A stretch of 64,000 nucleotides of DNA from an uncultured Alphaproteobacteria bacterium (lineage in GTDB: Bacteria > Pseudomonadota > Alphaproteobacteria > RF32 > CAG-239): NCBI GenBank assembly GCA_949493535.1, contig CASZWJ010000001.1, forward strand, positions 140,850 to 204,849, read 5' to 3'. Each line of letters begins with the position of its first letter. Position 1 is the first letter of the stretch. Shown piece after piece: positions 3,192 to 58,495 of the stretch. The translations under genes were made by a program, and so were the position numbers. The notes beneath the pieces were generated by a model. It did no database searches. It was given only the letters and a program-made list of their open reading frames with translations, and was not told the DNA's origin.

Positions 3192-5471
3192 TTAACCGGC
3201 GCAGCTGACGCATTCTTCTTTGGCGGCGGAAGAGCCGTCTTTCTGAATGGTGCGGGTATAATACAGGGTTTTGATGTCTTTTTTCCAAGCCGACATAATT
3301 GTTTCATAAATGTCTTTGGCGCGGATATCCCTGTTGAGGTTGTACATCAGTTCAATAGAAATACCGGTATCAATCCATTTGTTAATCCTTGCCATTACTT
3401 CAATGATTTTGCGTTGGTCGATATTGCGGTTTTCCTGATAAAACCAGAATTTGTCGCGGATATAGGGCGGACAGTTCGGAATGCTGCCTTTGCCGTGGGT
3501 TTCAACGAAAAATTTGCTGTAAATCGGCAAGACCGAGGCTGTGCAGCCTTGGATTAATGAAGAACTGGTATTCGGCGCAATCGCTGAAATTTGCGAATTG
3601 CGAATACCGTGTTGAGCCAACTCTGCAAAAATCTGCGCCCATTCCTGTTTGTGTTTGGCATTTGCCTCAAACCAGATTTGCGGCTTGCCGAAGATTAAGC
3701 CTTTATCCCAATCAGAGCCTTTGTATGCGCCGAAAGTTCCTTTCTTTTTGGCAAGTTCAATGCTGGCTTTGATATTGTAAATTGCCATTTTTTCAAACAG
3801 TTCATCAACATAATCGGCAGAGTTGATATAAGGAATGTTGTTTTTTGCCAGCATATCGGCCAGACCCATGGCTCCGACGCCGATTGTGCGATAACGCTGA
3901 TTGTGCTGCGAACCCTCCAAAATCGGTACCTGCGTAAAATCAATGGCATTATCCAAAATGCGGACGGAAGTTTGGCAAATGCTTTCCAGTTCTTCGTCAT
4001 TTTCAACATTGGCCAGGTTAATGGAAACCAGATTGCAGACGTGGACCAGCCCGTCGGAAGTTTCAGAAATGATTTTGCCGTTTTCAATTCTTTTTTCCGC
4101 GAATTTTGCCGGACGGACATTGCTGTGGGATTCCGTGCAAAGGTTGGTGCCGACAATCACGCCGTCATGCTTGTTCGGGTTATAACGGTTTAACGTGTCT
4201 TTGAATGCAATATAGGGCATGCCGGTTTCAATCTGAGATTTCATCAGGCGTTTTAACAGTTCTTTGGCGGGAACGAATTTTGCCATTTCCAGTTTGCCGA
4301 ACTCTGCGTCAAGGTAAAGCTGGTTATACAAGTCTTCAAATTCTTTGCCCCAGAGGTCGGCAATTTCTTTGCCGTATTTCTCGCGGACTTCATGCGGGTC
4401 AACCAGCAGCCATTTTTCATTGTTTTCGACTTTTTTCATAAACAAGTCGGGAATGACGACCTGCGGGAAGATATCATAGGCTTTCATGCGCTGGTCGCCG
4501 TTTTCGGTGCGCAATTCCAAAAAGTTTTCGATATCCAGATGCCACATATCCAAAGAAACGGTAACAGCCCCTTTGCGTTTGCCCTGCTGGTTGACGGCAA
4601 TAGCCGTGTCATTGATGATACGAATCCAAGGAATAACGCCGCCGGAAGAGTTTTTAATCCCTTTGATGCGCGAACCTTTGGAGCGGACACGCGAGATGTT
4701 GACGCCGACCCCGCCGCCGAATTTGGAAATAGCGGAAATCTGATCTATAACATAAAAAATCGAATCGCGGTTATCGTCCATAACGGTAATAAAGCAAGAG
4801 CTGAGGTTGCCGTTCGGGCGGCGCAGATTCATCAGCAAGGGCGTGGCCAGAGAGATTTTGCGGTCGGCCAGTTTTTGATATGTGTCTTTGACCTGTTGCA
4901 TGCGATTGGCTTTGTCTTCGTTTTGTTCAATCAACAACGCAATGGTCAGAAACATTTCCTGCGGCAGTTCGACAATATGGTCATTATGTTCGCAGAGGTA
5001 ACGTTTGATCAGCAGGTTGGCACCGGCATAATCATAGACCAAGTCATAAGCCGGGTTAATGAAAGATGCAGCTTCTTTAATTTCTTCTTTGGAATATTTC
5101 TCCGTAATGACAGATGAATAAACATTGTTTTTAACGGCATATTCCAAAAAGTTTTCATAAGCATATGGAACGGCGCTGCCGCTTTGGCGATAATTTTTAA
5201 CATCTTTGTAAAGGTCAAAGACTTTCAGGCGTCCGGCAACGTTTTTCCAATCCGGCTCAATGACGGAAGTCAGGTTTAAGGCGCTGAGGATTAAGGCTTT
5301 ATTGATTTCCGAAGCCGGCATTTCATTTTTGAAGAAAGAAGGGATTGTTTCCAATAATTTGTTTTTATCCAATTGAAAGCCGTCTGTTGCCCGCTCTACC
5401 GTTTTGGTGATTTTTTCTATGTCAAAAGCCGCGGTTTGTCCGTTTCTTTTGGTAATTTTTTGATTTTCCAT
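3192..5471 (-). CDS. nrdA: ribonucleoside-diphosphate reductase alpha subunit (class Ia)
   Basis: 759 aa, N-terminal ATP-cone (VIKRNGQTAAFDIEKI), catalytic NLCTE region, C-terminal CVSCAG redox tail. Confidence 0.92.
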   Translation of the reverse strand: MENQKITKRNGQTAAFDIEKITKTVERATDGFQLDKNKLLETIPSFFKNEMPASEINKALILSALNLTSVIEPDWKNVAGRLKVFDLYKDVKNYRQSGSAVPYAYENFLEYAVKNNVYSSVITEKYSKEEIKEAASFINPAYDLVYDYAGANLLIKRYLCEHNDHIVELPQEMFLTIALLIEQNEDKANRMQQVKDTYQKLADRKISLATPLLMNLRRPNGNLSSCFITVMDDNRDSIFYVIDQISAISKFGGGVGVNISRVRSKGSRIKGIKNSSGGVIPWIRIINDTAIAVNQQGKRKGAVTVSLDMWHLDIENFLELRTENGDQRMKAYDIFPQVVIPDLFMKKVENNEKWLLVDPHEVREKYGKEIADLWGKEFEDLYNQLYLDAEFGKLEMAKFVPAKELLKRLMKSQIETGMPYIAFKDTLNRYNPNKHDGVIVGTNLCTESHSNVRPAKFAEKRIENGKIISETSDGLVHVCNLVSINLANVENDEELESICQTSVRILDNAIDFTQVPILEGSQHNQRYRTIGVGAMGLADMLAKNNIPYINSADYVDELFEKMAIYNIKASIELAKKKGTFGAYKGSDWDKGLIFGKPQIWFEANAKHKQEWAQIFAELAQHGIRNSQISAIAPNTSSSLIQGCTASVLPIYSKFFVETHGKGSIPNCPPYIRDKFWFYQENRNIDQRKIIEVMARINKWIDTGISIELMYNLNRDIRAKDIYETIMSAWKKDIKTLYYTRTIQKDGSSAAKEECVSCAG

Positions 5472-56759: not shown

Positions 56760-56849
56760 GGAGAGATGGCAGAGTGGTCGAATGCGATTGACTCGAAATC
56801 AGTTGTACTCGTGAGGGTACCCAGGGTTCGAATCCCTGTCTCTCCGCCA
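56760..56849 (+). tRNA. tRNA-Ser (anticodon CGA)
   Basis: 90 nt. Acceptor GGAGAGA / TCTCTCC, anticodon stem ATTGA / TCAGT with loop CTCGAAA, long variable arm, T-arm CAGGG-TTCGAAT-CCCTG, discriminator G and encoded CCA. Confidence 0.85.
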
Positions 56850-56854
56850 TTAAT

Positions 56855-56886
56855 AAAAAACCCCGTCATGTACGGGGCTTTTTATT
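56855..56886 (+). terminator. rho-independent terminator after tRNA-Ser
   Basis: CCCCGT-catgta-ACGGGG followed by CTTTTTATT. Confidence 0.7.
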
Positions 56887-56997
56887 AATGATGAGGGGAG
56901 CTTGATTTGAACCCTGGGAAAAGGGTTCGACAGCAAGCGAGAGCGAGACGGAAGTATCGCGGTCGGCTTTGCCGATGAGCGAAGATGCGGCGAAGCC

Positions 56998-57016
56998 AAT
57001 CCCTGTCTCTCCGCCA
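56998..57016 (+). repeat. 19-bp direct repeat of the tRNA-Ser 3' end (att-like) with duplicated downstream context
   Basis: AATCCCTGTCTCTCCGCCA is identical to 56831-56849. It is followed by a second diverged hairpin (GAAGCCCC.../...GGGTGCTTC) and TTATTGATGAGG, mirroring the sequence after the tRNA. Confidence 0.6.
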
Positions 57017-57180
57017 ATAACAAAAGAAGCCCCATAAGGGTGCTTCTTTTGTTATTGATGAGGTTAAATTCCGGAGAAAGGGCGGCTACAAACAGCAGGT
57101 TGCCGAAAGTCTGCCGGCGGCGTGTACGGCAAGCCGTGCAGTGGTGTTGCCGCCTATCTCTTTCTTTCGCCATTTTGATT

Positions 57181-57259: not shown

Positions 57260-57847
57260 TTATCGTTTTAAAAACCGGTGGAGAGTTGACAGGTTAACAT
57301 GGAGATCGTGGGCAATTTTAATTTTCGGTATTTGGTTTGCAATCATGTTTTTTATGATGTTTTCTTTACCCTGCAATTTTGTGGTTTTATTTTTGCTGCC
57401 TTTAGGGCGGCCGATGCTTTTTCCCTCATTGCGCAGGCGTAATAAAGCTTCTTTGGTTCGCGCCGAGATAAGGTTTCTTTCAATTTCGGCACTTAAGCCA
57501 AAGGCAAATGCCAAAACTTTTGACTGGATATCCGCTCCGAGTTTGTAGTTTTCTTTGACAGTCCAGACCTGACAGCCTTGTTCCAGACAGTGGTGCAGGA
57601 TACTCATGATTTGCATCAGGTTTCGGCCTAAGCGTGACAGTTCAGAGGTTATTAAAATGTCATCGGATTTAAGGTTTTTTAATATCTTACCGAGTTTTCT
57701 TTTGTTCAGTTCTTTTGTGGACGATATTGTTTCGATAATCCAGTGATTGATTTTAAGATTATGCAGATTTGCAAATTTTGTTATTTCGAATTTTTGGTTT
57801 TCAGTATTTTGTTTGTCGGTACTTATTCTGATGTAACTATAAATCAT
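57260..57847 (-). CDS. small serine recombinase (resolvase/invertase family)
   Basis: MIYSYIRISTDKQNTENQ (catalytic Ser region), 195 aa, C-terminal HTH IAHDLHVNLSTLHRFLK. SD AAGGAT 8 nt upstream. Confidence 0.85.
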   Translation of the reverse strand: MIYSYIRISTDKQNTENQKFEITKFANLHNLKINHWIIETISSTKELNKRKLGKILKNLKSDDILITSELSRLGRNLMQIMSILHHCLEQGCQVWTVKENYKLGADIQSKVLAFAFGLSAEIERNLISARTKEALLRLRNEGKSIGRPKGSKNKTTKLQGKENIIKNMIANQIPKIKIAHDLHVNLSTLHRFLKR

Positions 57848-57910
57848 TGCTGCTAATCCTTTGTCTTTTTTATTTGATTAGCATTCTACTATTGATTTGT
57901 GTTATTGAAA

Positions 57911-58061
57911 ATAAACGAACGTTTAATTGAATTATAGTTATATTCTAATATTTTGTCAAGCTAATTAATAATCAAGATAAAAACATAAATAAAACAACAT
58001 GTTAGTTTTTTATAAGAATATTCTGGTCTTTTTATGAAACAGGCAAAATAACGTTCGTTAT
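57911..58061. promoter_or_regulatory. inverted-repeat-flanked ~125-bp segment upstream of the recombinase (res-like site or invertible switch candidate)
   Basis: AAACGAACGTTT at 57913-57924 and AACGTTCGTT at 58050-58059 share a 10-bp inverted core. The consensus promoter lies between them. Confidence 0.4.
57931..57959 (-). promoter_or_regulatory. perfect consensus sigma70 promoter reading toward the recombinase gene
   Basis: Minus-strand reads TTGACA (57959-57954), 17 nt, TATAAT (57936-57931). Confidence 0.6.
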
Positions 58062-58132
58062 TTTGCAATGGAGCAGGAAAGCGGGCGTTGGTTAAAGTGA
58101 AATGTATATAATTTTAAGCAAAGGAAAAACAG

Positions 58133-58495
58133 ATGATTTCTTTTATTAAAAACAATATTTTGACTCTTTGCTGTATGACAATAATGATTTTATTGGGTAC
58201 GGCAGACGGTGCTCTCGCTGCCGGAACCTATGATTTGATGGGTACTGCGCAGATGAAAGCTGTTGCTGTATTCAAATCTGTAAAAACGATTATCTTTGTT
58301 GTCGGCGGTTTCGGTTTGGTTGCTTTGGCTTTCATGGCTATTTTCGGCAAACTGGACTGGAAAAAATTCTCAATGCTGGCTGTCGGTTTGGCTATTTTGG
58401 CTGCTGCCGGCGCTATCGTTGACTATGCAACCGGCGATGATGCTGGAGCGGATTTCAGTGATAGTTTTGGGAAAAGTGCACAGTCGTCGATTTAA
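58133..58495 (+). CDS. TrbC/VirB2-like pilin-type small membrane protein
   Basis: Signal peptide ending ALA-AG, then two hydrophobic segments and an acidic tail. 120 aa. The fold guess comes from topology only. Confidence 0.35.
   Translation: MISFIKNNILTLCCMTIMILLGTADGALAAGTYDLMGTAQMKAVAVFKSVKTIIFVVGGFGLVALAFMAIFGKLDWKKFSMLAVGLAILAAAGAIVDYATGDDAGADFSDSFGKSAQSSI

Follow-up and report, generated by a model that had tools for sequence, protein, structure and literature searches.

A probable phase-variation switch between an Mpi-family serine invertase gene and a VirB2-family pilin gene in an uncultured gut alphaproteobacterium

Genes, recombination sites and promoters

The locus described here lies in a 64-kb stretch of the genome of an uncultured alphaproteobacterium (contig CASZWJ010000001.1, positions 140,850 to 204,849; GenBank assembly GCA_949493535.1), referred to below as the window. 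It comprises a gene for a small serine recombinase, a short segment that is bounded by inverted repeats and carries a consensus promoter, and a gene for a TrbC/VirB2-family pilin on the far side of the segment (Table 1). An initial annotation of this DNA had offered two readings, a res site of the Tn3/gamma-delta type or a promoter that inverts to serve either the recombinase or the pilin gene. The second is borne out by the analysis: both orientations occur in public assemblies, the recombinase belongs to the Mpi family and resembles Gin more than it does the resolvases, and the repeat cores fit the Mpi consensus. The locus is very probably a phase-variation switch (inverton) run by an Mpi-family serine DNA invertase.

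Table 1. Features of the invertase-pilin locus (window coordinates)
Feature	Position	Strand	Description
Invertase gene	57260-57847	minus	Open reading frame (ORF), 195 amino acids (aa); Mpi-family small serine DNA invertase
Candidate weak fixed promoter P2	57911-57883	minus	TTTTCA-17-TAGAAT; promoter scan, 9/12 match; outside the segment
Proximal recombination site	57904-57933	no strand	ATTGAAAATAAACG-AA-CGTTTAATTGAATT; centre AA 57918-57919; 10-bp core 57914-57923
Predicted promoter P1	57959-57931	minus	TTGACA-17-TATAAT, sigma-70; 12/12 consensus match; inside the segment
Invertible unit	57918-58055	no strand	Centre to centre, 136 bp between centres
Distal recombination site	58040-58069	no strand	CAGGCAAAATAACG-TT-CGTTATTTTGCAAT; centre TT 58054-58055; palindrome 58043-58066
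TrbC/VirB2-family pilin gene	58133-58495	plus	120 aa, signal peptide, two hydrophobic helices

The recombinase ORF stands as first described, a member of the resolvase/invertase family, and can now be placed more closely within it. It matches Pfam Resolvase (7e-30) and passes the NCBIfam equivalog model NF009949, "master DNA invertase Mpi family serine-type recombinase", with 294.1 bits against a cutoff of 272 over residues 1-194 of 195. The catalytic motif YIRISTDKQ contains Ser9, a helix-turn-helix (HTH) region lies at the C-terminal end, and residues Y5, R7, S9, R72 and R75 are invariant in an alignment of 15 Mpi-family members. Among solved structures (PDB) the Gin invertase is the top match (1e-13), with far weaker matches to the resolvases of Tn3 (4e-6) and gamma-delta (5e-5). 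Relatives number in the thousands, those that bear a name among the closest being Mpi-family proteins in metagenome-assembled genomes (MAGs) of uncultured Alphaproteobacteria from gut and rumen, while members from Bacteroidales are about 57-60% identical. The initial annotation had allowed for clustering with plasmid or transposon resolvases; in a plasmid collection nearly all of the best matches (50-58% identity) instead carry an Mpi-family annotation, and that search brought up no close resolvase of a plasmid or transposon. Judged by its sequence, the 195-aa protein is an Mpi-family serine DNA invertase.

At the two ends of the segment the initial annotation had marked 10-bp inverted cores, AAACGAACGTTT at 57913-57924 and AACGTTCGTT at 58050-58059. 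Their positions are correct, and the 10-mer has no other exact occurrence in the window, but their extent was understated, each core sitting within a 30-bp pseudo-palindromic site of hix-like appearance. The sites are built from two inverted half-sites of about 14 bp (approximately ATTGaAAAtAAAcG) that flank an asymmetric 2-bp centre, and a 24-bp palindrome in the distal site is perfect except for its central TT. On the plus strand the centres read AA (proximal) and TT (distal) and are thus in mutually inverted orientation, so that recombination between the sites inverts the segment rather than deleting it.

The published consensus of the Mpi target repeat is ARACGTTCGTN (PMC8375218). The proximal core, which reads AAACGTTCGTT on the minus strand, has a reverse complement (AAACGTTCGT) that fits both ARACGTWCGT and this consensus, and the distal core TAACGTTCGTT matches the latter at 10 of 11 positions. 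In Bacteroides uniformis a 174-nt inversion has been seen experimentally with repeats containing TTAAACGAACGTTTAA (PMC12691588), and the repeats of this inverton have the 15-mer TAAACGAACGTTTAA in common with the proximal site. Comparison with known sites, as the initial annotation had advised, yields a match to the Mpi target in a hix/gix-like design and not a res site of three subsites. A weight matrix built from half-sites of four species ranks the proximal site (30.8 bits) and the distal site (28.1 bits) first and second in the window, against 7.4 bits for the next best position and 17 bits for the best of 30 shuffles. The chance of a 10-bp inverted repeat had been put at a few percent, which was too low: such a repeat arises in 12-21% of shuffles of the AT-rich 285-bp spacer. 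The repeat alone is therefore not significant, and the case rests on the other evidence.

Between the cores lie 126 bp with a GC content of about 0.26-0.28, in keeping with the AT-rich segment first reported, and the sequence depends on orientation only at 57924-58049. P1, which faces the invertase gene in the window as originally noted, is the only perfect TTGACA-17-TATAAT in the 64 kb, where 0.02 would be expected, and no terminator-like hairpin was flagged by a scan of the minus strand between P1 and the invertase gene. Inversion would move P1 to the plus strand (58014-58042) and turn it towards the pilin gene, and it is so arranged in the flipped contig L185 described below. The -35 element of the candidate promoter P2 falls within the outer half of the proximal site; in the P2 region TTTTCAAT does not vary, and 16-17 bp downstream of it eight of nine species share an aligned TAnnnT element. 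P2 would supply basal invertase in both orientations. The pilin ORF begins 74 bp past the right core, and its assignment as VirB2/TrbC-like is upheld by a match to Pfam TrbC of 38.1 bits (cutoff 27.9; 1.8e-9). In the orientation of the window it is preceded by an isolated TATAAT (58107-58112) with no -35 element.

Orientations, relatives and cargo of the module

Contigs that encode the exact invertase or pilin protein were gathered from public assemblies. The orientation of the window, termed A, was found in about 13 distinct other samples, and the flipped orientation, termed B, in two independent assemblies, L185 (ENA ERZ781214) and L194 (Logan SRR14944321); the search for both forms, which the initial annotation had proposed, was thus successful. 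When 57918-58055 is reverse-complemented in silico, the window agrees with L185 without a mismatch in the 285-bp spacer and with two mismatches in 2,702 bp overall, whereas the unflipped window differs from L185 at 57924-58049, the differences being confined exactly to the interval between the cores. L194 corresponds to a flipped L189 with one mismatch in 1,005 bp, in a strain background other than that of L185. Samples with this species also include ERZ14231498, ERZ14231496 and JGI 3300005461, and a 577-kb contig of the MAG GCA_964017975.1 bears the locus. In addition, the 198-kb contig L006 has its end precisely at the inner boundary of the proximal core. This is the point at which the two orientations diverge, and a branch in the assembly graph is expected there if the sample holds both. 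The segment inverts in nature, with junctions exactly at the cores.

Contig ends clustered 50-500 bp from the invertase gene in 160 related loci were also considered as evidence of inversion and were rejected, since short contigs necessarily end there. Other contigs that start about 70 bp upstream of the invertase gene have no recognisable site at their start.

The sites themselves show some further features. A natural G-to-A variant at 57917, beside the crossover centre, replaces AAACGAACGTTT by AAACAAACGTTT in L002, L202 and L203 and destroys the perfect 10-bp repeat. All three loci are in orientation A, and the variant might slow or lock the switch in them. Read on the minus strand, the distal palindrome was flagged as terminator-like (10-pair stem, then CTGTTTCATA), and in orientation A it could stop transcription coming into the segment from the pilin side. 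The hybrid site that inversion forms is much less palindromic than the distal site.

The two-site module recurs in at least nine species with invertase identities of 65-100%. The proximal site is centred about 73 bp upstream of the invertase start codon and has the centre TT, the distal site lies 120-145 bp further out with the centre AA, and in the relatives a sigma-70-like promoter is found just inside the proximal site. The relative orientation of the two centres is the same throughout the module-bearing species, and the outer half-sites are the best-conserved parts. In a related species (L023, a GTDB representative MAG) the segment is assembled opposite to that of L015 and can be aligned with it only after reverse-complementing, with 108 of 130 positions identical versus 79 of 130 in direct alignment. 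Both centres of L023 are GA/TC where L015 has AA/TT, a coupled change of the kind that a crossover dinucleotide demands. The divergent partner gene differs among species. It encodes a TrbC/VirB2 pilin in that of the window and in the relative with 81% identity, an Opacity/outer-membrane protein (OMP) beta-barrel in L018-L022 and L033, a lipoprotein in L028, and a 244-aa protein without a Pfam family in L015, L023 and L106.

The weight matrix detects the two-site module only in relatives of at least about 65% identity and is uninformative on the more distant family members, many of which have no recognisable adjacent module. When the upstream regions of all family members were scanned for inverted repeats of 14 nt or more, 40 of 137 loci had them, barely above the background of 23 of 137 in shuffles, and this generic search produced convincing extra pairs in L043 and L060 only. 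Upstream of their Mpi-like genes these two loci carry perfect 14-nt repeat pairs, AAAAAACG-GT-CGTT at -233/-56 in L043 and ATAAACC-AC-CATTT at -203/-61 in L060. The repeats are 140-180 bp apart and their centres differ from those of the other species; the pairs are likely to be further self-adjacent invertons with diverged cores. A recurring TAAACGCTC upstream of distant family members was considered as a site and rejected, since it forms the conserved beginning of a divergent gene (MSVY...). In L018-L022, a clade of 68% identity, a second small serine recombinase gene (3610-4182; 190 aa, HTH_7) lies convergent and directly downstream of the Mpi-like gene, both of them within an apparent mobile island that includes a DUF6538/phage-integrase gene and RhuM.

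The pilin gene of the window is solitary, with a convergent MGMT gene next to it, and no type IV secretion system (T4SS) genes are present among the large ORFs of the window. Relatives with 74% and 58% identity to it head chromosomal T4SS operons, in which as many as three TrbC paralogs in tandem are accompanied by a VirB3-sized gene of 96 aa and by VirB4/TrbE; in the more distant relatives L196 and L199-L201 no Mpi-type sites were found upstream of these operons. In sister strains, five contigs (L202-L206) match the window with 97-99% identity until exactly position 58434, where they part from it at a sharp breakpoint (58434/58435) inside the pilin gene. In these contigs the pilin gene is followed by trbC2-like, trbC3-like and VirB3-like genes, which form the head of a T4SS operon, and L203 has the same invertase and switch upstream of it. 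Past 58434 the window has 19 different codons and then the convergent MGMT gene. Both C-terminal tails of the pilin retain the pattern SD(S/T)FG(K/Q)S, suggesting that the breakpoint arose by recombination between pilin paralogs. One switch is carried by two haplotypes, with a lone pilin gene in the window and a T4SS operon in the sister strains. In L196-L198 (296-5685) a T4SS operon with three tandem TrbC paralogs stands back-to-back with a secretin/TcpQ/PilO-type cluster that is type IVb-pilus-like.

The window as a whole is ordinary chromosome, with genes for ribonucleotide reductase, NusA, IF-2, PNPase, BipA, HtpG, GroEL and MurJ. The locus has tRNA-Ser, nitroreductase, MGMT and DUF3750 genes as neighbours, and neither a transposase nor transposon ends were found near it. 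The tRNA-Ser(CGA) gene (56760-56849) is followed, within the stretch 56760-57063, by partial copies of its 3' end, one direct (56998-57025, 93%) and one inverted (56872-56918, 77%), each carrying a terminator-like hairpin, with a repeat offset of 167 bp. The stretch from the 3' end of the invertase gene to tRNA-Ser differs among strains, being 39 bp shorter in L004, and in the 81%-identical species it holds either Amidase_2 and Cas1/Cas2 genes or acetyltransferase genes. This stretch looks like an integration hotspot with att-like scars.

Proposed mechanism and its alternatives

In the proposed mechanism, dimers of the invertase would bind the two 30-bp sites, each composed of two inverted 14-bp half-sites around the 2-bp centre. 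Cleavage at the centres, rotation of the subunits by 180 degrees and religation would then invert the 136-bp segment. In orientation A transcription from P1 would start near 57924 on the minus strand and run for about 77 nt through the proximal site to the invertase gene, leaving the pilin gene without a good promoter. In orientation B transcription from P1 would start near 58050 on the plus strand and run for about 84 nt through the distal site into the pilin gene, or in the sister strains into the T4SS operon, and the invertase would be left with only the weak fixed promoter P2, whose predicted start is near 57876. We infer these transcriptional consequences from the positions of the predicted promoters. 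The inner half-site would travel with P1, and a bound invertase dimer would cover the start region of P1 either way. This overlap in both orientations suggests repression of P1 by the invertase, and the enzyme probably acts as a repressor of P1 as well. In the gut the bacterium may benefit from varying a pilus or secretion system that is exposed on its surface.

Several observations weigh against this account. Simple logic predicts the opposite bias, as a strongly expressed invertase should destabilise orientation A. Given that A predominates despite the strong invertase promoter, autorepression, a cofactor or selection against pilus-ON cells must be assumed. Orientation frequencies were taken from consensus assemblies only. 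The flipped 28-mer junction has no occurrence in JGI metagenome contigs or in GTDB genomes, the flipped form having come from ENA and Logan contigs retrieved via the pilin protein, and the long, well-covered contigs are all in orientation A, which makes B either a minority state or one that is rarely sampled. L185 has a coverage of 2.4x and L194 is a short contig, and such contigs may reflect chance sampling of minority cells. The inversion is attributed to the invertase at 57260-57847 because the gene and the sites adjoin and are conserved together; another recombinase of the same genome could perform it instead. The weight-matrix scan found no further target sites in the 64-kb window and so lends no support there to the "master" role to which the family name alludes. 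Finally, the activity of P1 and the existence of P2 are predictions based on promoter consensus.

The case for a switch depends on the flipped contigs, and it is scarcely credible that these are assembly artefacts of the inverted repeats and that the segment is fixed in vivo. The low coverage of L185, the shortness of L194 and the absence of the flipped junction from two other collections would suit an artefact, but the perfect repeat core of just 10 bp is far below the k-mer sizes of assemblers, and the same exact junctions came from two pipelines and samples and in two strain backgrounds. Moreover, L023 is flipped in an independent species with co-varying centres, and L006 ends exactly at the core edge. 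The observed inversion also bears on the res-site reading of the initial annotation, according to which the repeats would be resolvase subsites of Tn3/gamma-delta type overlapping the promoter and serving autoregulation and the resolution of cointegrates or dimers, with no inversion. As an account of the main function it is refuted by the two orientations. The curated family assignment to Mpi invertases, the position of Gin as best structural relative, the lack of a close plasmid or transposon resolvase among the matches in the plasmid collection, the presence of just two, mutually inverted sites where a res site has three subsites, and the housekeeping gene neighbourhood with no transposase or transposon ends all argue in the same direction, so that we consider a res site very improbable despite the Resolvase catalytic domain and the detectable similarity to the Tn3 and gamma-delta resolvases. 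One part of it is plausible within a switch, as the proximal site overlaps the start region of P1 and the -35 element of the candidate P2, and autoregulation could follow from this.

A different possibility accepts the inversion and holds that the sites and promoter mainly regulate the invertase, orientation A being the working state that supplies a "master" enzyme to other invertons and the pilin gene being incidental. The prototype of the family acts on many unlinked loci, orientation A dominates across species and samples, and many family members lack an adjacent two-site module, all of which would be expected under this arrangement. The partner gene, however, consistently encodes a surface, membrane or secreted protein and lies about 70-80 bp past the distal site, where it has a ribosome-binding site of its own and lacks a strong promoter; in the sister strains it is the head of a whole T4SS operon, and the 64 kb contain no other target site. 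An incidental pilin gene is on this evidence quite improbable, and a phase-variation switch that serves the partner gene is preferred. A more speculative extension of the switch, which we regard as unlikely though less so than an incidental pilin, is a self-limiting "switch of switches". Flipping P1 to the pilin gene or T4SS operon would deprive the invertase gene of its one strong promoter and thereby stabilise the pilus-ON state and lower the supply of invertase, and if the enzyme serves other invertons their pattern would be frozen. Orientational control of a master serine invertase would in that case couple global surface variation to the state of one local switch.

Comparison with known systems

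In the literature neither Mpi-family switches in Alphaproteobacteria nor inversion control of VirB2/T4SS genes was found, in a search that was incomplete and in a field where large inverton surveys exist. The locus extends Mpi-type promoter inversion, known mainly from the capsule loci of Bacteroides, to uncultured Alphaproteobacteria of gut and rumen and ties it to type IV secretion pilins and operons and to outer-membrane proteins. For hosts without a cultured model it provides an on/off marker of a surface organelle that can be read from sequence and could be tracked in metagenomic reads, for instance in relation to phage pressure or to the state of the host. A single promoter for either invertase or cargo is a compact natural case in which the supply of a recombinase depends on the state that the recombinase sets, and the 30-bp sites with their co-varying centre can serve as a target model in searches for more invertons in these genomes.

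Among the closest known systems is that of Mpi in Bacteroides fragilis and related Bacteroides, with its invertible promoters of polysaccharide loci. The two have the protein family and the repeat core (ARACGTTCGTN, TTAAACGAACGTTTAA) in common, and in both a short promoter-bearing segment is flipped, of 136 bp here and 170-190 bp in Bacteroides, where surface structures are turned on and off. In contrast to Bacteroides, the host here is an uncultured gut alphaproteobacterium of another phylum, and the promoter is of the sigma-70 consensus rather than the Bacteroides type. The cargo is a VirB2-family pilin gene or T4SS operon (OMPs in relatives) instead of capsule loci, and the switch lies between the invertase gene and this cargo, so that one promoter alternately faces the invertase. 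While the Bacteroides enzyme inverts multiple unlinked loci, inversion here is known from one locus.

The Hin/hix, Gin/gix, Cin and Pin systems likewise employ small serine recombinases with a C-terminal HTH, and their sites are mutually inverted, each with a pair of inverted half-sites that enclose an asymmetric 2-bp centre (AA in hixL). As in Hin, the segment carries a promoter. Gin itself has about 30% sequence identity to the 195-aa invertase. The half-sites of these systems are 12 bp long compared with about 14 bp here, their recombinase genes lie inside rather than outside the segment, and their segments measure about 1-3 kb versus 136 bp. They also possess a Fis-bound recombinational enhancer; at the present locus no Fis-type enhancer could be identified from the sequence.

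Orientational control has a precedent in fim, where recombinase expression also depends on the orientation of the switch. E. coli fimS (FimB/FimE) and ipuS of uropathogenic E. coli (PMC6083910) resemble the present locus in having a recombinase gene beside a short invertible promoter of a surface organelle or adhesin. Their recombinases are tyrosine rather than serine enzymes, their site architecture differs and there is no sequence relationship. By every feature testable here the switch is an Mpi-type inverton, ordinary in its kind as an on/off switch and new in its host and cargo.

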